From Escherichia coli (GTDB taxonomy: Bacteria > Pseudomonadota > Gammaproteobacteria > Enterobacterales > Enterobacteriaceae), in NCBI RefSeq assembly GCF_003018115.1, contig NZ_CP027457.1: a DNA stretch of 64,000 nt; one strand, written 5' to 3'. This document shows, piece after piece, positions 698-54,093 of this stretch. The position numbers were made by a program, and so were the translations under genes. Position 1 is the stretch's first letter; the number at the start of each line of letters is the position of its first letter. The notes beneath the pieces were generated by a model. That model saw nothing but the letters and a program-made list of their open reading frames with translations, ran no database searches and was not told where the DNA came from.

Positions 698-1804
698 ATG
701 AATGTGTTGCGTAGTGGACTCGTGACGATGCTGCTGTTGGCTGCCTTTAGTGTTCAGGCAGCCTGTACCTGGCCTGCCTGGGAGCAGTTTAAAAAGGATT
801 ACATCAGTCAGGAAGGGCGCGTCATCGACCCCAGCGACGCGCGCAAAATCACCACCTCTGAAGGGCAAAGTTACGGCATGTTCTTTGCCCTGGCGGCTAA
901 CGACCGTGCAGCTTTCGATAATATTCTCGACTGGACGCAGAACAATCTTGCTCAGGGTTCTTTAAAAGAACGTTTGCCCGCCTGGCTGTGGGGCAAGAAA
1001 GAGAACAGTAAGTGGGAAGTGCTGGACAGCAATTCGGCCTCCGATGGTGATGTCTGGATGGCCTGGTCGTTGTTGGAGGCGGGTCGTTTGTGGAAAGAGC
1101 AGCGTTATACCGACATCGGCAGCGCGTTGCTAAAACGTATTGCGCGGGAGGAAGTGGTGACGGTGCCTGGGCTGGGTTCCATGTTGTTACCGGGCAAAGT
1201 GGGTTTTGCTGAGGATAACAGCTGGCGTTTTAACCCCAGCTACCTGCCGCCGACGCTGGCGCAGTATTTCACCCGCTTTGGCGCGCCGTGGACTACGCTG
1301 CGCGAAACCAATCAACGTTTATTGCTGGAAACCGCCCCGAAAGGCTTTTCGCCAGACTGGGTGCGTTATGAGAAAGACAAAGGCTGGCAGCTAAAAGCCG
1401 AAAAAACATTGATCAGCAGCTACGACGCCATCCGCGTTTACATGTGGGTAGGCATGATGCCTGACAGCGATCCGCAGAAAGCGCGGATGCTCAACCGGTT
1501 TAAACCGATGGCGACATTCACTGAGAAAAACGGTTATCCGCCGGAAAAAGTGGATGTGGCTACGGGGAAAGCGCAGGGTAAAGGACCGGTCGGTTTTTCT
1601 GCCGCCATGCTGCCCTTTTTACAAAACCGCGATGCGCAGGCCGTTCAGCGCCAGCGCGTGGCCGATAACTTTCCCGGCAGCGATGCCTATTACAACTATG
1701 TGCTGACCCTGTTCGGACAAGGCTGGGATCAACACCGTTTCCGCTTCTCGACAAAAGGTGAGTTATTACCTGACTGGGGCCAGGAATGCGCAAATTCACA
1801 CTAA
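698..1804 (+). CDS. bcsZ: Endo-1,4-beta-glucanase (cellulase, GH8) BcsZ
   Basis: ORF 692..1804; signal peptide then mature protein matching recalled K-12 BcsZ; start probably the second Met (MNVLRSG). 3' end overlaps bcsC start. Confidence 0.9.
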
Positions 1805-4800
1805 ACATATTCACGCTTTCCCTCGGTCTGGCCGTCATGCCGATGGTCGAGGCAGCACCAACCGCTCAGCAACAGTTGCTGGAGCAAGTTCGGTTAGGCG
1901 AAGCGACCCATCGTGAAGACCTGGTACAGCAGTCGTTATATCGGCTGGAACTTATTGATCCGAATAACCCGGACGTCGTTGCCGCCCGTTTCCGTTCTTT
2001 GTTACGTCAGGGCGATATTGATGGCGCGCAAAAACAGCTCGATCGGCTGTCGCAGTTAGCGCCGAGTTCAAATGCGTATAAATCGTCGCGGACTACGATG
2101 CTACTTTCCACGCCGGATGGTCGTCAGGCACTGCAACAGGCAAGATTGCAGGCGACTACCGGTCATGCGGAAGAAGCTGTGGCGAGTTACAACAAGCTGT
2201 TCAACGGTGCGCCGCCGGAAGGTGACATTGCTGTCGAGTACTGGAGTACGGTGGCGAAAATTCCGGCTCGCCGTGGCGAAGCGATTAATCAGTTAAAACG
2301 CATCAATGCGGATGCACCGGGCAATACGGGCCTGCAAAACAATCTGGCGCTATTGCTGTTTAGTAGCGATCGCCGTGACGAAGGTTTTGCCGTCCTGGAA
2401 CAGATGGCAAAATCGAACGCCGGGCGCGAAGGGGCCTCTAAAATCTGGTACGGGCAGATTAAAGACATGCCCGTCAGTGATGCCAGTGTGTCGGCGCTGA
2501 AAAAATATCTCTCGATCTTTAGTGATGGCGATAGCGTGGCGGCTGTGCAATCGCAACTGGCAGAACAGCAAAAACAGCTGGCCGATCCTGCTTTCCGCGC
2601 TCGTGCGCAAGGTTTAGCGGCGGTGGACTCTGGTATGGCGGGTAAAGCCATTCCCGAACTACAACAGGCGGTGCGGGCGAACCCGAAAGACAGTGAAGCT
2701 CTGGGGGCGCTGGGCCAGGCGTATTCTCAGAAAGGCGATCGCGCCAATGCAGTGGCGAATCTGGAAAAAGCCCTCGCACTGGACCCGCACAGCAGCAACA
2801 ACGACAAATGGAACAGTCTGCTGAAAGTAAACCGCTACTGGCTGGCGATCCAGCAGGGCGATGCTGCGCTGAAAGCCAATAATCCTGACCGGGCAGAACG
2901 CCTGTTCCAGCAGGCGCGTAATGTCGATAACACCGACAGTTATGCAGTGCTGGGGCTGGGCGATGTGGCGATGGCGCGAAAAGATTATCCCGCCGCCGAA
3001 CGTTATTATCAGCAGACCTTGCGTATGGACAGCGGCAACACTAACGCCGTGCGCGGGCTGGCAAATATTTACCGCCAGCAATCGCCAGAAAAAGCTGAAG
3101 CGTTTATCGCCTCGCTCTCTGCCAGTCAGCGGCGTAGCATTGATGATATCGAACGCAGCCTGCAAAACGACCGTCTGGCACAGCAGGCAGAAGCACTGGA
3201 AAACCAGGGCAAATGGGCGCAGGCGGCAGCACTTCAGCGGCAACGACTGGCGCTGGACCCCGGCAGCGTATGGATTACTTACCGACTTTCGCAGGATCTC
3301 TGGCAGGCCGGACAACGCAGCCAGGCCGATACGTTAATGCGCAATCTGGCGCAGCAGAAGCCGAACGACCCGGAGCAGGTTTACGCTTACGGGCTGTACC
3401 TCTCTGGTCATGACCAGGACAGAGCGGCGCTGGCGCATATCAACAGCCTGCCGCGTGCGCAGTGGAGCAGCAATATTCAGGAGCTGGTTAATCGACTGCA
3501 AAGCGATCAGGTGCTGGAAACCGCTAATCGCCTGCGAGAAAGCGGCAAAGAAGCTGAAGCGGAAGCGATGCTGCGTCAGCAACCACCTTCCACGCGTATT
3601 GACCTCACGCTGGCTGACTGGGCGCAGCAGCGACGTGATTACACCGCCGCCCGCGCTGCATATCAGAATGTCCTGACGCGGGAGCCAACTAACGCCGATG
3701 CCATTCTGGGGTTGACGGAAGTGGATATTGCTGCCGGTGACACAGCAGCGGCACGTAGCCAGCTGGCGAAACTGCCCGCTACCGATAACGCCTCGCTGAA
3801 CACACAGCGGCGCGTGGCGCTGGCGCAGGCGCAGCTTGGCGATACCGCAGCGGCGCAGCAGACGTTTAATAAGTTGATCCCGCAGGCAAAATCTCAGCCA
3901 CCGTCGATGGAAAGCGCGATGGTGCTGCGCGACGGTGCGAAGTTTGAAGCGCAGGCGGGCGATCCAAAGCAGGCGCTGGAAACCTACAAAGACGCCATGG
4001 TCGCATCCGGTGTGACTACGACGCGTCCGCAGGATAACGACACCTTTACCCGACTGACCCGTAACGACGAGAAAGATGACTGGCTGAAACGCGGCGTGCG
4101 CAGCGATGCGGCGGACCTCTATCGCCAGCAGGATCTTAACGTCACCCTCGAGCATGATTACTGGGGTTCGAGCGGCACCGGTGGTTACTCCGATCTGAAA
4201 GCGCACACTACCATGTTGCAGGTGGATGCGCCGTATTCTGACGGGCGGATGTTCTTTCGCAGTGATTTCGTCAATATGAACGTCGGCAGTTTCTCCACGA
4301 ATGCCGATGGTAAATGGGATGACAACTGGGGCACCTGTACATTACAGGACTGTAGCGGCAACCGCAGCCAGTCGGATTCCGGTGCCAGCGTGGCGGTCGG
4401 CTGGCGAAATGACGTCTGGAGCTGGGATATCGGCACCACGCCGATGGGCTTCAACGTGGTGGATGTGGTCGGCGGCATCAGTTACAGCGATGATATCGGG
4501 CCGCTGGGTTACACCGTTAACGCCCACCGTCGTCCCATCTCCAGTTCTTTGCTGGCCTTTGGTGGGCAAAAAGACTCCCCGAGCAATACCGGGAAAAAAT
4601 GGGGCGGCGTGCGTGCCGACGGCGTGGGGCTAAGCCTGAGCTACGATAAAGGTGAAGCAAACGGCGTCTGGGCATCGCTTAGTGGCGACCAGTTAACCGG
4701 TAAAAATGTCGAAGATAACTGGCGCGTGCGCTGGATGACGGGCTATTACTATAAGGTCATTAACCAGAACAATCGCCGCGTCACAATCGGCCTGAACAAC

Positions 4801-5259
4801 ATGATCTGGCATTACGACAAAGATCTGAGTGGCTACTCACTCGGTCAGGGCGGTTACTACAGTCCGCAGGAATACCTGTCGTTTGCCATACCGGTGATGT
4901 GGCGGGAGCGCACGGAAAACTGGTCGTGGGAGCTGGGGGCGTCTGGCTCGTGGTCGCATTCACGCACCAAAACCATGCCGCGTTATCCGCTGATGAATCT
5001 GATCCCGACCGACTGGCAGGAAGAAGCTGCGCGGCAATCCAACGATGGCGGCAGCAGTCAGGGCTTCGGCTACACGGCGCGGGCATTACTTGAACGACGT
5101 GTTACTTCCAACTGGTTTGTTGGCACGGCAATTGATATCCAGCAGGCGAAAGATTACGCGCCCAGCCATTTCCTGCTCTACGTACGTTATTCCGCCGCCG
5201 GATGGCAGGGTGACATGGATTTACCGCCGCAGCCGCTGATACCTTACGCCGACTGGTAA
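1786..5259 (+). CDS. bcsC: Cellulose synthase outer-membrane/TPR subunit BcsC
   Basis: 1157-aa ORF; signal peptide, long TPR-like Ala/Leu-rich repeat region, C-terminal beta-barrel-like Gly/Tyr/Trp-rich domain; overlaps bcsZ stop by 19 nt. Confidence 0.92.
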
Positions 5260-5340
5260 GTTTTCAGATAGCGCCTCTCTTAATGCCGCTGCGATCGGGT
5301 ATACTCGGGCGGCAATCTGGGATTTCCGGGGGGAGACAAT

Positions 5341-7329
5341 TTGCGCGTAAGTCGCTCGTTAACAATCAAGCAGATGGCAATGGTGGCAGCCGTTGTCCTG
5401 GTGTTCGTTTTTATTTTTTGCACCGTTTTGCTGTTCCATCTGGTCCAGCAGAATCGCTATAACACGGCTACGCAACTGGAAAGCATTGCTCGCTCTGTCC
5501 GCGAACCCTTATCTTCAGCTATTTTGAAAGGCGATATTCCCGAAGCGGAAGCTATTCTTGCCAGCATTAAACCGGCAGGCGTGGTCAGCCGTGCCGATGT
5601 AGTGCTGCCCAACCAGTTCCAGGCGCTGCGTAAAAGTTTTATTCCAGAGCGCCCGGTGCCGGTAATGGTTACTCGCCTGTTTGAGCTACCGGTTCAAATC
5701 TCGCTGGGCGTTTACTCGCTCGAACGTCCGGCAAATCCGCAGCCAATTGCCTATCTGGTGCTACAGGCGGATTCCTTCCGTATGTATAAGTTCGTGATGA
5801 GCACCCTCTCAACGTTAGTGACCATTTACTTACTTTTGTCGTTAATATTGACGGTGGCGATTAGCTGGTGCATTAACCGCCTGATTTTGCATCCGTTACG
5901 CAATATTGCTCGCGAACTTAACGCCATCCCAGCCCAGGAGCTTGTTGGTCACCAACTGGCATTACCGCGTCTGCATCAGGATGATGAAATCGGTATGTTG
6001 GTGCGCAGTTACAACCTCAACCAGCAATTGCTGCAGCGCCATTATGAAGAACAGAACGAAAATGCGATGCGCTTCCCAGTGTCGGATTTGCCGAACAAAG
6101 CCTTGCTGATGGAGATGCTGGAGCAGGTTGTCGCGCGTAAACAAACCACCGCGCTGATGATCATCACCTGTGAAACCCTGCGTGATACTGCGGGTGTGCT
6201 GAAAGAGGCGCAACGAGAAATTCTGCTGCTGACGCTGGTGGAAAAACTCAAATCGGTACTGTCGCCACGTATGATCCTCGCGCAGATTAGCGGTTATGAC
6301 TTTGCTGTCATTGCCAATGGTGTACAGGAACCGTGGCACGCAATCACCTTAGGTCAGCAAGTGCTCACTATCATGAGCGAGCGCCTGCCGATTGAACGTA
6401 TTCAACTCCGTCCGCACTGTAGCATTGGCGTGGCGATGTTCTACGGCGATCTCACCGCCGAACAGCTTTACAGTCGCGCTATTTCTGCGGCATTTACCGC
6501 TCGCCATAAAGGCAAGAATCAGATTCAGTTCTTTGATCCGCAGCAGATGGAAGCCGCCCAGAAGCGGTTGACGGAAGAGAGCGATATCCTTAATGCACTG
6601 GAAAATCATCAGTTTGCTATTTGGTTACAGCCACAGGTCGAGATGACCAGCGGTAAACTGGTCAGTGCGGAAGTGTTACTGCGTATCCAGCAACCGGATG
6701 GCAGTTGGGACCTGCCGGATGGCTTAATCGAGCGCATTGAGTGCTGTGGGCTGATGGTTACCGTCGGTCACTGGGTGCTGGAAGAGTCCTGTCGATTGCT
6801 TGCAGCCTGGCAAGAGCGCGGCATTATGCTGCCCTTGTCGGTAAACCTCTCTGCGCTGCAACTGATGCACCCGAATATGGTGGCGGATATGCTGGAACTG
6901 TTAACCCGCTATCGCATTCAGCCGGGAACACTGATTCTGGAAGTGACAGAAAGCCGACGTATTGACGACCCTCATGCTGCGGTGGCAATCCTCCGTCCGC
7001 TGCGCAATGCTGGAGTTCGGGTGGCGCTGGATGATTTCGGCATGGGCTACGCAGGGCTGCGTCAGCTGCAGCATATGAAATCGTTGCCAATCGACGTTCT
7101 GAAAATCGACAAAATGTTTGTTGAAGGCTTGCCGGAAGATAGCAGCATGATTGCTGCAATTATCATGCTGGCGCAGAGCCTGAACTTACAAATGATTGCC
7201 GAAGGCGTGGAGACTGAAGCACAACGCGACTGGCTGGCAAAAGCGGGCGTTGGTATTGCCCAGGGCTTCCTTTTTGCTCGTCCACTCCCTATTGAAATCT
7301 TCGAAGAGAGTTACCTGGAAGAAAAGTAG
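5341..7329 (+). CDS. pdeK: c-di-GMP phosphodiesterase PdeK (YhjK/HmsP-like; TM-HAMP-degenerate GGDEF-EAL)
   Basis: 662-aa ORF with N-terminal TM segments and C-terminal EAL domain motifs (EVTE, DDFG(M)GYAG, KIDK); apparent TTG start codon. Confidence 0.88.
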
Positions 7330-7475: not shown

Positions 7476-8798
<1,323 letters not shown>

Positions 8799-48102: not shown

Positions 48103-49116
48103 TTAAAATAGCATTTGAGTCAAATAGCCCATTAAGATAGCCATACCTAAGATAACCGTCAGGAATGCAACTATCATCGGTATTCTGAACATTGATTTAA
48201 GTAATATCACTTCCGTCAGGCTTGCGCCCGCACTACCGATGATTAATGCCATTAATGCTCCCAGACCCATTCCTTTTGTCATCAAAACAGATGCCAGAGG
48301 GATAACTGCCTCTGCCCGGATATACAGCGGAATACCGATAACGGCGCTCAATGGGATGGCGAAGGGATTATCTGTCCCTGCATGAGCGGCAATCCATGCA
48401 GAGGGAATAAAGCCATAAATAAAAGAGCCTATTAATACCCCTAACAAAAGATATGGCAGTACATCTTTAAACTGTTGCAACGCATCTTTGGTGGCTAGTT
48501 TTATGGGATTAATACTTACCACAGCTTTGGTACTGCAACAGTTAACGACGGGTTTCTCAATGGCTTTAGCCACTGGATTACAGCAACTCACTTTTATTGG
48601 CGTATATGTCGTCCCCGGCGAAGTTTTGGCTGGAGTACAACAACTTGTTGATGAGCTTTTACTGGCAATGATATGACGTTCAAACCCCAGAGAATCCAGG
48701 ATAATACTGGCAAGTACGGAGACGCCGGCGGCGATAATCGCGTACAACAAGGTAACTTTCCAGCCAAAGGTCACCCACATTAGTCCGACGATAATGGGAT
48801 TAAGTAACGGAGAAACAAATAAAAAAGTGAGAGTCGGACCGAACCCAGCTTTCGCTGACAACAATCCACGTAACATGGGTATTGTCGAGCAACTACAGAA
48901 CGGGGTAACGGCTCCCAACAGAGCAGCCAGGAGATAGCCTCTCCCTTTTCTGGCCCCCATCATCTGCTGGATTTTATGGTCTGGCACCTTTTGTCTTATC
49001 AGGCTGACACCGGCACTAATCACTATAAACAGCAAAGAAAGCTCGACGGCGAGAAACACAAACATCTCTGCGGCATCTTGCAGCATCGCAAGCCAACTAC
49101 TCATACATAACCTCAT
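48103..49116 (-). CDS. ArsP-like (DUF318-type) membrane permease, putative organoarsenical/metalloid efflux
   Basis: 337-aa polytopic membrane ORF with TPFCSCSTIP motif, recalled as the ArsP signature, and a central loop with three vicinal Cys pairs (SCC, SCC, NCC). Not in K-12 at this position by recall. Confidence 0.75.
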   Translation of the reverse strand: MRLCMSSWLAMLQDAAEMFVFLAVELSLLFIVISAGVSLIRQKVPDHKIQQMMGARKGRGYLLAALLGAVTPFCSCSTIPMLRGLLSAKAGFGPTLTFLFVSPLLNPIIVGLMWVTFGWKVTLLYAIIAAGVSVLASIILDSLGFERHIIASKSSSTSCCTPAKTSPGTTYTPIKVSCCNPVAKAIEKPVVNCCSTKAVVSINPIKLATKDALQQFKDVLPYLLLGVLIGSFIYGFIPSAWIAAHAGTDNPFAIPLSAVIGIPLYIRAEAVIPLASVLMTKGMGLGALMALIIGSAGASLTEVILLKSMFRIPMIVAFLTVILGMAILMGYLTQMLF

Positions 49117-49210
49117 TGAATAAATCTATATTTCCAGAATAATCGAAATGAAATTCAGATCAAGATATTTCTGGTATTATCGAAATATCAACCAGACAGA
49201 GGGGTGTCAT

Positions 49211-49531
49211 ATGCAGTTAGAAGAAGTCGCTAAAGCGCTGAAAGAGCTAGGTCACCCGACCCGTTTGTTCATATTTAAACATCTTGTCAAAGCAGGGGAA
49301 CAAGGGTTGCCGGTCGGTGAGTTGCAAAAGCAGCTTGGGATACCTGGCTCCACACTCAGCCACCATATATCAGCACTGGTATCGGTAGGACTGGTCAAAC
49401 AAAACCGTGAGAGTCGGACGCTGATGTGTGTTTCGCAATACGCAATGCTGGAAGCGATAATTGAATTCTTACGCGAGGAGTGCTGCGTAAATAGCAAAAC
49501 ACTTGGCGAAGGGGCCACGAAGAACAAATAA
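49211..49531 (+). CDS. ArsR/SmtB-family metalloregulator, atypical, with C-terminal Cys-Cys
   Basis: ORF 49148..49531; likely start MQLEEVAKALKELGHPTRL (106 aa) with a GGGG RBS; wHTH of ArsR family; lacks the N-terminal CVC site but has C73 and C91-C92 (EECCVNS). Divergent from the permease. Confidence 0.75.
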   Translation: MQLEEVAKALKELGHPTRLFIFKHLVKAGEQGLPVGELQKQLGIPGSTLSHHISALVSVGLVKQNRESRTLMCVSQYAMLEAIIEFLREECCVNSKTLGEGATKNK

Positions 49532-49551
49532 GGGGGCATATCCCCCTTAAG

Positions 49552-49977
49552 CTATTTCAGGCGCTTACCCGCCTCATCAACCACTTTCTCGCCATCTTCC
49601 TTGGCGAACGCGCCTTTTTGCGCATCTGGCAGAATTTCCAGCACCACTTCTGAAGGGCGGCACAGGCGAGTTCCCAGCGTCGTCACCACAATCGGGCGAT
49701 TAATCAGAATCGGGTGCTGAAGCATAAAGTCGATTAACCGATCGTCAGTAAATTTATCTTCCGCAAGGCCCAGCTCCTCATACGGTTCGACGTTTTTACG
49801 CAGCAGCGCGCGTACGGAAATCCCCATATCGGCAATAAGTTTGACCAGTTCATCGCGCGTTGGCGGAGTTTCCAGATAATGGATAATGGTCGGTTCTGTG
49901 CCGCTGTTGCGGATCATCTCCAGCGTATTACGCGACGTGCCGCAGGCCGGGTTGTGATAAATGGTAATGTTGCTCAT
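49552..49977 (-). CDS. arsC: Arsenate reductase ArsC (glutaredoxin-coupled)
   Basis: 141-aa ORF matching recalled ArsC (MSNITIYHNPACGTSRN). Confidence 0.94.
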   Translation of the reverse strand: MSNITIYHNPACGTSRNTLEMIRNSGTEPTIIHYLETPPTRDELVKLIADMGISVRALLRKNVEPYEELGLAEDKFTDDRLIDFMLQHPILINRPIVVTTLGTRLCRPSEVVLEILPDAQKGAFAKEDGEKVVDEAGKRLK

Positions 49978-52234: not shown

Positions 52235-52311
52235 TTAGCTCTGAGGCATTTTCACTCTGGCAATGCGCTTGACATCCTCCACGCCCTAAAGGACGTGGAT
52301 TCCTGCTACGT

Positions 52312-53532
52312 TCAGGCTGTCGCCTGAATCATTTCGGTGGGTTCCTGCTTCAACGGGCGGCCTGACTGCACCATCCCTCCACAGGCAAGAACGGCGTGCC
52401 CCGCCGCTAAAATGTTACGAGCGCCGTTTACATCGGCGTTCGCTGTATATCCACATACCGGGCATCTGAATTGACTTTGTGACAGGCGATTTTCTTTCGC
52501 TGTATGACCACAGCACGCGCAACGCTGGCTTGTGTACGCTGGCGGAACAGCAAGCACCTGACCGCCACGCCAGAGCTGCTTGTACTCAAGCTGGCGGCGC
52601 ATTTCATACCAGCCCTGATCCAGTATCGAACGGTTTAAACCTGATTTTGCCCGGACATTGCGCCCCGGCAGGCTGACCGTACCCGATGCTGACTTTGACA
52701 TGTTGCTGACCTTCAAATCCTCAATGACTATCATTGCGTGGTTTTTGCTGACGGTCGTTGTGACTTTGTGAAGGTAGTCCCTGCGGATATTTGCGATACA
52801 GGAATGCAGTCGCTGTATTTTGCGTTTCTGCTTCTGCCAGTTGTTGCTGAATTTGACCTTGCGGCTTAACTGTCGCTGAAGTCTCGCCAGCTTCTTCTGG
52901 TTTTTCTGAAAACTGTTTACAGGCTCAAAGGCTGTGCCATCTGACAGCGTGGCGAGTTTAGCCACGCCAGCATCCAGCCCGACCATTGATGCTGAAGGGT
53001 GAACCGGAGTTGATACTTCACTTTCTGTCTGAATACTGATGTACCACTTACCGCAGGACTGGCTGACCGTGACATTTTTCACAACACCCGTGACCTGACG
53101 GCTATTCCGGTAGCGCATCCAGCCCAGTTTCGGCAGAAAAATACGGCTGTTTTCCTGATCGAGCTTAACGCCCTGCGGGTAGCGGAATGCATCATTCTGT
53201 CCCCGCTTTTTGAATCGGGGAAAAGCAGCCCGCTTCTGGAAGAAGTTTTTGTAAGCCCGCTCAAGGTCTTTCAGTGACTGTTGCAATGGCTGTGAGGGCG
53301 AATCTTTAAGCCATTGCGTTTCAGTGGCGTTTTTCCACTCAACCAGCCAGGAAGCCATTTTCCCGTAAGGGATGTATTTATTACCGGCCTCATGATTCTC
53401 ATTCTGACGTGCCAGAGCACGATTGAAAACGAAACGACATGCGCCTGCGAAGCGCCTCATTTCACGCTCCTGTTGACCACCGGGTCTTAACTGGAATTTA
53501 AATGCCTGTAGTCGTTTCATGGGCCAAATCAT
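52312..53532 (-). CDS. tnpB: TnpB (OrfB_IS605) RuvC-like RNA-guided endonuclease / accessory transposase protein
   Basis: 406-aa ORF (start may be Met5, [13 protein letters not shown]); RuvC-like acidic residues in [23 protein letters not shown]; zinc-finger CACCGH...CPVCGY. Confidence 0.85.
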
Positions 53533-53542
53533 ACTTTGGCCT

Positions 53543-53958
53543 ATGAAAAAAGAAACCGATATCCGACGCGGAAGGCATTGTGTTTTCCTGATGCATGTTC
53601 ACCTGGTCTTCGTTACTAAATACCGACGTCAGATTTTTGACTATGACGCGACAGAAAAACTACGCACTTACTTTTCAAATGTATGTGCTGATTTTGAAGC
53701 TGAACTGGTTGAAATGGATGGCGAACCAGATCACGTCCATTTGTTAATTAACTATCCTCCCAAACTGGCGATATCCAGTCTGGTAAACAGCCTCAAAGGC
53801 GTATCGGGTAGGTTACTGCGACGAGATCGACCAGATATTGCAGCCAGGTATTACTACAAAGCGTTTTGTGGAGTCCTGGCTATTTTGCCAGTAGCTGCGG
53901 TGGTGCACCAATATCCATCATCCGCCAATACATTGAACAACAGCAAACACCTGGTTAG
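53543..53958 (+). pseudogene. tnpA: IS200/IS605 Y1 (HuH) transposase TnpA, apparently frameshifted
   Basis: N-terminal HuH motif (HVHLVF, KYRRQ) and second HxH (DHVHLLI) in the ORF frame; conserved C-terminus LWSPGYFASSCGGAPISIIRQYIEQQQ is in another frame from about 53866, ending at 53958. The 175-aa track ORF (to 54046) is a frame-fusion artefact. Confidence 0.55.
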
Positions 53959-54015
53959 GTGGAAAACCGCACCTTATATCCCCGCCCTGAATGAACGGGG
54001 TTTTACGGCGCACCG

Positions 54016-54093
54016 GATAAAGCAATCATCGTTCTTGGGGCGTTAATTGCGCTGCTGGAACTGATCCGCTTTCTGCTTCAGCTTCTGAACTGA
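54016..54093 (+). CDS. dinQ: DinQ-like type I toxin peptide ORF (codons 3-27 present; no in-frame start codon)
   Basis: Encodes DKAIIVLGALIALLELIRFLLQLLN*, matching recalled DinQ from residue 3; upstream in-frame codons (TGFYGAP) contain no ATG/GTG/TTG back to a stop at 53992; convergent with gor. Confidence 0.5.
   Translation, partial: DKAIIVLGALIALLELIRFLLQLLN

Follow-up and report, generated by a model that had tools for sequence, protein, structure and literature searches.

The window analysed here, i.e. the whole stretch of DNA under study, is 64,000 nt of an Escherichia coli chromosome (GCF_003018115.1, contig NZ_CP027457.1) and includes two genes, pdeK and rsmJ, that an earlier note on this sequence had proposed to begin with non-ATG start codons. 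Annotation was referenced to E. coli F9792 (NZ_CP024273.1, minus strand; PGAP) and to K-12 MG1655 (NC_000913.3/U00096.3, curated). F9792 is the closest complete RefSeq genome, aligning to the window in two blocks at 99.9 % and 99.3 % identity that cover all except ~1.7 kb, and is 100 % identical over both 600-nt start regions (pdeK and rsmJ). The pdeK region at 5100-5700, identical in F9792, shows 99.7 % identity to K-12-derived strains.

Across the ~50 annotated CDS in the window, the start codon was ATG in 46, GTG in two (rsmJ and chuU), TTG in one (pdeK) and an artefactual ATC in one. Figures quoted in the literature put start usage in E. coli at 83 % AUG, 14 % GUG and 3 % UUG, and there are 81 annotated UUG starts in the species (Nakahigashi 2016, PMC4909307). 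One TTG and two GTG per ~50 genes matches the rate that is normal for E. coli; the count in the window is unremarkable and no more than expected by chance.

The second GTG-start gene, chuU/shuU (heme ABC permease), was without mention in the earlier note; its start codon lies at 37547-37549 on the minus strand, with GGAG 6 nt upstream. By F9792 annotation, a chu/shu heme-uptake cluster occupies ~27700-40750, between dctR and yhiD, and comprises chuS, chuA, chuT/shuT, chuW/hutW, hutX, chuY, chuU and an ATP-binding protein gene. K-12 is not known to carry this cluster. The ATC start belongs to the PGAP call for a 22-aa DinQ and was rejected as a real non-canonical start. An IS200/IS605-family element at 52269-54015, annotated in F9792 as a frameshifted tnpA and a tnpB, stands in place of 165 bp of K-12 sequence. 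Among the sequence lost with that segment are the 5' leader and the GTG start of dinQ (~54025-54093), a type I toxin gene; the ATC call is an annotation artefact because the insertion removed the true GTG start. The K-12 interval with agrA and agrB, which specify antisense sRNAs, can still be aligned to the window. Beside arsC, a 1.7-kb segment (47817-49552) is absent from both K-12 and F9792, where ~330 bp is found instead, and encodes an ArsP_1-family permease (337 aa, 48103-49116, minus strand) and a divergent ArsR-type HTH regulator (127 aa, 49148-49531, plus strand); the strain behind the window is accordingly distinct from F9792.

The pdeK and rsmJ loci

The features of the two loci, with the evidence on which each was placed or rejected, are as follows, where TetRP denotes tetracycline ribosome profiling.

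5328..5336, plus strand: Shine-Dalgarno site GGGGGGAGA, the GGAG core of which ends 5 nt before the TTG
5341..5343, plus strand: pdeK TTG start codon (sequence, F9792/MG1655 annotation, TetRP, orthologues)
5341..7329, plus strand: pdeK (hmsP/yhjK) CDS, 662 aa (ORF, Pfam/NCBIfam, annotation)
5374..5382, plus strand: rejected pdeK starts, ATG 5374 (Met12) and ATG 5380 (Met14) (no Shine-Dalgarno site)
56616..58658, plus strand: prlC (oligopeptidase A) CDS, with stop TGA at 58656-58658 (annotation, sequence)
58624..58626, plus strand: rejected rsmJ start, an in-frame ATG 14 codons upstream and inside prlC (no Shine-Dalgarno site, not conserved)
58649..58654, plus strand: Shine-Dalgarno-like TAAGGG within the final codons of prlC, its end 11 nt away from the rsmJ GTG
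58659..58665, plus strand: 7-nt spacer tcattca from the prlC stop to the rsmJ start (sequence)
58666..58668, plus strand: rsmJ (yhiQ) GTG start codon (sequence, annotation, six genera, family model, PDB constructs)
58666..59418, plus strand: rsmJ CDS, 250 aa, by annotation the 16S rRNA m2G1516 methyltransferase (Pfam SAM_MT, NCBIfam RsmJ)

The pdeK open reading frame opens with TTG at 5341-5343, as the earlier note had read it, and continues CGC GTA AGT CGC TCG TTA ACA ATC AAG CAG ATG GCA ATG GTG. The earlier note had allowed that an in-frame ATG might be found upstream; the nearest in-frame stop on the 5' side is TAA at 5281, and between this stop and the TTG there is no ATG, GTG or TTG. The PGAP hmsP of F9792 maps exactly to window 5341-7329, and MG1655 pdeK (b3529; 3683630..3685618, minus strand) has its TTG behind ggggggagacaat. 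The gene lies between bcsC (1786-5259) and dctA (7512-8798), in an order identical to that of MG1655. A consensus scan detected neither a sigma-70 promoter nor a terminator in the 81-nt bcsC-pdeK gap, and predicted RNA structure at the pdeK start was no better than that of shuffled sequence (z = 0.08).

The PdeK layout consists of a basic N-terminal tail, a first transmembrane segment (TM1), a GAPES3 periplasmic domain, HAMP, a degenerate GGDEF and EAL, with Pfam matches to GAPES3 at 36-155, HAMP at 178-231 (below cut-off), GGDEF at 247-394 and EAL at 415-648. Based on the EAL domain match, the protein is predicted to be an inner-membrane c-di-GMP phosphodiesterase. The gene identities given in the earlier note were borne out for both loci, with the NCBIfam equivalogs above cut-off in each case: HmsP (NF008807) at 782.8 bits against a cut-off of 733, with residues 2-659 aligned to profile positions 1-663 of 670, and RsmJ (NF008012; Pfam PF04445) at 538.7 bits against 422, with residues 1-249 aligned to positions 1-249 of 250.

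At the second locus, prlC and rsmJ lie on the same strand with a 7-nt gap. The earlier note had placed the rsmJ GTG at about 58666, 8 nt past the prlC stop, which holds in the sense that its G at 58666 is the 8th base after the stop. The codons following the GTG, AAA ATC TGC TTA ATT GAT GAA, give (M)KICLIDE. The PGAP rsmJ of F9792 maps exactly to window 58666-59418, and MG1655 rsmJ (b3497; 3642380..3643132, minus strand) likewise has a GTG 7 nt after the prlC stop, such that the two non-ATG starts proposed for pdeK and rsmJ coincide with both reference annotations. The translated RsmJ is identical to PDB 2PGX over residues 1-250, the crystallised E. coli, Shigella and Salmonella proteins (2PGX, 2OYR, 2PKW) begin MKICLIDE or MQICLMDE, and the N-terminal length of the Neisseria homologue 2R6Z equals that of RsmJ within one residue. 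The methylation of 16S rRNA G1516 is attributed to K-12 YhiQ (Basturea 2012). The start is GTG in 6/6 other genera (Citrobacter, Enterobacter, Cedecea, Mixta, Salmonella and Franconibacter), and a literal first residue of V or L in some JGI RsmJ proteins is indicative of GTG, or of TTG in some relatives. There were no rsmJ start-site or N-terminal peptide data in the TetRP tables (PMC4909307) or the Giess 2017 supplements. Within rsmJ codons 9-16 (58692-58711), ~26 nt after the start, a hairpin of 8 perfect base pairs (GGCACCGG-AGAC-CGGUGCC) is predicted, to which the folding z-score of 58615-58715 (-2.4) is mostly due.

Alternative starts and possible coupling to prlC

The 2006 K-12 annotation began yhjK at the ATG of Met14 (window 5380), giving a protein of 649 aa, and many automatically called E. 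coli PdeK entries in public genome and metagenome collections still begin there (MVAAVV; P0001-P0005 and others). That pdeK truly starts at this ATG or at Met12 (5374), with the TTG a mere mechanical opening of the frame, appears very improbable, even though ATG is the commonest start codon and Met12 is invariant among the orthologues. Ribosome profiling, one of the checks that the earlier note had named, has been published: TetRP assigned yhjK a new start at -39 with the codon TTG (Nakahigashi 2016, PMC4909307, Table S2 row 51), with normalised reads of 37.6/53.1/21.1 at the TTG, i.e. in 3/3 replicates, against 0/0/0 at the 2006 start, and a 2014 re-annotation moved the yhjK start likewise (Table S3 of PMC4909307). 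Apart from TetRP, nothing specific to the hmsP/pdeK TTG start was found in the literature. The duplex of GGGGGGAGA with the 16S 3' end has a predicted energy of -9.4 kcal/mol, a value that ranks within the top 0.4 % when set against random window positions, compared with +0.1 to -2.2 kcal/mol for the downstream candidates at 5374, 5380, 5383 and 5401; neither ATG 5374 (+0.1) nor ATG 5380 (-1.6) has a Shine-Dalgarno site. Codons 2-12 encode an identical 11-residue peptide in 80 Enterobacteriaceae sequences (window included) despite 40 DNA haplotypes, and of the 11 variable columns ten are third positions and the other is a first position at which the change is synonymous, such purely synonymous variation being the signature of translated sequence; within this stretch, codons 2-11 vary strictly synonymously across the 80 species. 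Further, the orthologues have M, A, T, I, L or V at the position of Met14, the alignment to the HmsP family model sets in at PdeK residue 2, and the 11-residue tail would lose its three basic residues, which by the positive-inside rule probably lie in front of TM1, if translation began at Met12 or Met14. Initiation at the TTG, which is the preferred reading, would then involve recruitment of the 30S subunit by the strong GGGGGGAGA 5 nt upstream, initiation at UUG 5341 and synthesis of the 662-aa PdeK. GTG 5383 and GTG 5401 were also rejected as pdeK starts, there being no Shine-Dalgarno site at either. TetRP reported a second, weaker yhjK candidate at +21 relative to the 2006 start (PMC4909307). 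In the window this is GTG 5401 (5401-5403; -1.8 kcal/mol, no Shine-Dalgarno site), an in-frame codon inside the first transmembrane segment, and minor internal initiation may occur there. For rsmJ, the mirror-image alternative is an upstream start at the in-frame ATG 58624 or a farther GTG, yielding a protein of 264 aa or longer that overlaps the end of prlC, and this too can be given very little credence. The rsmJ frame is open upstream as far as the stop at 58555 and holds ATG 58624 and GTG 58561, 58603 and 58609, all inside prlC, and several automatic calls place the RsmJ start at ATG 58624 (P0125, P0126, P0205, P0218; MRCWSIT...). An upstream in-frame ATG with a good ribosome-binding site would, in the terms of the earlier note, have overturned the GTG start; such an ATG does exist, having been missed in that note, but the good binding site is absent (+0.3 kcal/mol). 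This ATG is fortuitous, being formed where the Asp-Ala codons of prlC, GAT GCG, adjoin, and it is lost in 4/6 other genera because the Asp codon there is GAC, not GAT (GAC GCG). The prlC-rsmJ spacer is 6, 7 or 8 nt depending on genus, which puts the upstream region in different frames, and the N-termini of the RsmJ family model, the PDB proteins and the homologue from Neisseria all fall at the GTG position. GTG 58561 was rejected along with ATG 58624, as there is no Shine-Dalgarno site at either, and GTG 58603 and 58609 were rejected on the grounds that the upstream frame is not preserved across genera.

The proximity of the two genes had also led to the suggestion, in the earlier note, that translation of rsmJ is coupled to that of prlC. 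The spacer separating the prlC stop and the rsmJ start is 7 nt long here and 6-8 nt in six other genera, but its sequence is unconserved. UAAGGG, the only Shine-Dalgarno-like sequence near the rsmJ start, has a predicted energy of -4.9 kcal/mol, in the top 12 % of random positions, with a spacing too long for an optimal site. A weak start codon and a weak Shine-Dalgarno site, together with a conserved stop-to-start distance of 6-8 nt, constitute a typical re-initiation geometry, and on the basis of this geometry coupling of rsmJ to prlC has about an even chance of being correct, or slightly better. The alternative is that rsmJ is translated independently from its own weak UAAGGG and GUG, with the short spacer reflecting only a compact operon, which we regard as a real but lesser possibility, well short of even. 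The Shine-Dalgarno-like sequence could act alone at -4.9 kcal/mol, an AARGG motif recurs at this position in other genera, and no experiments on prlC-rsmJ coupling were found in the literature. However, 11 nt separate the end of the site from the GUG, which is beyond the usual optimum, and the site lies within codons that specify the C-terminus of PrlC, a location that might by itself account for the recurrence of AARGG; the geometry described above likewise favours re-initiation. Given a GUG 7 nt past the prlC stop and a poorly spaced Shine-Dalgarno-like site, re-initiation at rsmJ is thus probable. rsmJ is probably the second gene of a prlC-rsmJ operon, and prlC-yhiQ has been listed as one RpoH-regulon unit. 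Under coupling, much of its translation would come from ribosomes that had just terminated on prlC and then re-initiated. A 5-bp hairpin in which the prlC stop pairs with the first two bases of the GUG is predicted at the junction from the window sequence only, and was set aside as evidence since the spacer sequence differs in other genera.

Conservation of the pdeK UUG codon

The conservation of the pdeK start was determined by an orthologue scan of genome contigs covering 80 loci, i.e. the best 80 of 384 relatives at one per species, from the genera Escherichia, Salmonella, Citrobacter, Klebsiella, Enterobacter, Kosakonia, Kluyvera, Raoultella and others. The first codon was TTG in all 79 of the 79 loci aligned by motif search, and in one further locus (L030) by eye. 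The same codon was found in Pectobacterium, Sodalis and one further genome, and in three more relatives that are 55-58 % identical over the N-terminal 260 residues. Overall, the first codon was TTG in 87/87 orthologues read, down to about 50 % protein identity, and never ATG or GTG, and in each instance it stood behind a GGAG-type site. Upstream of the codon, GGAGA is conserved across the 80 Enterobacteriaceae, with variable flanks.

The codon was then compared with four-fold degenerate sites by counting parsimony changes on a neighbour-joining tree of the 80 Enterobacteriaceae sequences. The mean over the 34 four-fold sites was 16.4 changes, including 8.0 transversions, and the first T of the pdeK TTG had 0 changes; with two of the 34 sites being free of transversions, this is only a moderately strong test of conservation of the T.

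Genome-wide selection on start codons has been described as weak and favouring AUG, with non-AUG starts accompanied by stronger and more conserved Shine-Dalgarno sites (Belinky, Rogozin, Koonin 2017). From the presence of UUG in all 87 orthologues, it is conceivable that the codon itself is specifically selected at pdeK rather than being a tolerated weak codon, a tentative reading that we place a little below an even chance. The combination of a weak UUG with a strong and conserved Shine-Dalgarno site looks like a fixed, modest translation set-point for PdeK. If the UUG is indeed selected, a change to AUG or GUG would be harmful, and a possible explanation is that PdeK has to be kept at low abundance compared with the cellulose-synthase machinery, whose genes are adjacent. 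Alternatively, initiation at UUG might let PdeK synthesis respond to the condition of the initiation machinery. With the same UUG in every orthologue read, the gene offers a clean natural test case for selection on a weak start codon, which could interest specialists in translation or c-di-GMP signalling.

Significance and comparison with known systems

Taken together, pdeK and rsmJ very probably have ordinary near-cognate starts, decoded as fMet via the initiator tRNA and already present in the reference annotation, and coupling of rsmJ to prlC is plausible. As both start codons restate the current reference annotation, they are already known and routine, and the occurrence of two such starts matters little given that a minority of E. 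coli genes routinely start with codons other than ATG. The sole addition of the present work, the uniformity of the pdeK UUG in every orthologue read, is mildly new, and amounts to a minor observation on start-codon selection rather than a novel type of system. The two starts are nonetheless useful as an annotation check: many public automatic calls truncate PdeK at Met14, which removes the basic N-terminal tail, or extend RsmJ into prlC, which adds a spurious overlap.

Both loci closely resemble their K-12 counterparts. K-12 pdeK (b3529) has the same neighbours, the same 662-aa product and the same start region, including the TTG and GGGGGGAGA, with no differences at the start site. K-12 rsmJ (b3497) has the same GTG, the same 7-nt tcattca after the prlC TGA and the same 250-aa product, and the window differs from K-12 at the prlC end by a few synonymous differences. 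Among UUG starts more widely, yhjK is not named in the main-text account of lacZ fusions by Nakahigashi 2016, but it appears in the same table as the TetRP-remapped and lacZ-confirmed UUG starts of ftsH, ybeZ and yliA and is like them in that an upstream UUG outcompetes an annotated downstream AUG. With respect to the genome-wide trends of Belinky et al. 2017, the strong and conserved Shine-Dalgarno site of pdeK fits the pattern reported for non-AUG starts, whereas a UUG that is never replaced in 87 orthologues goes against the average, which is weak selection towards AUG.
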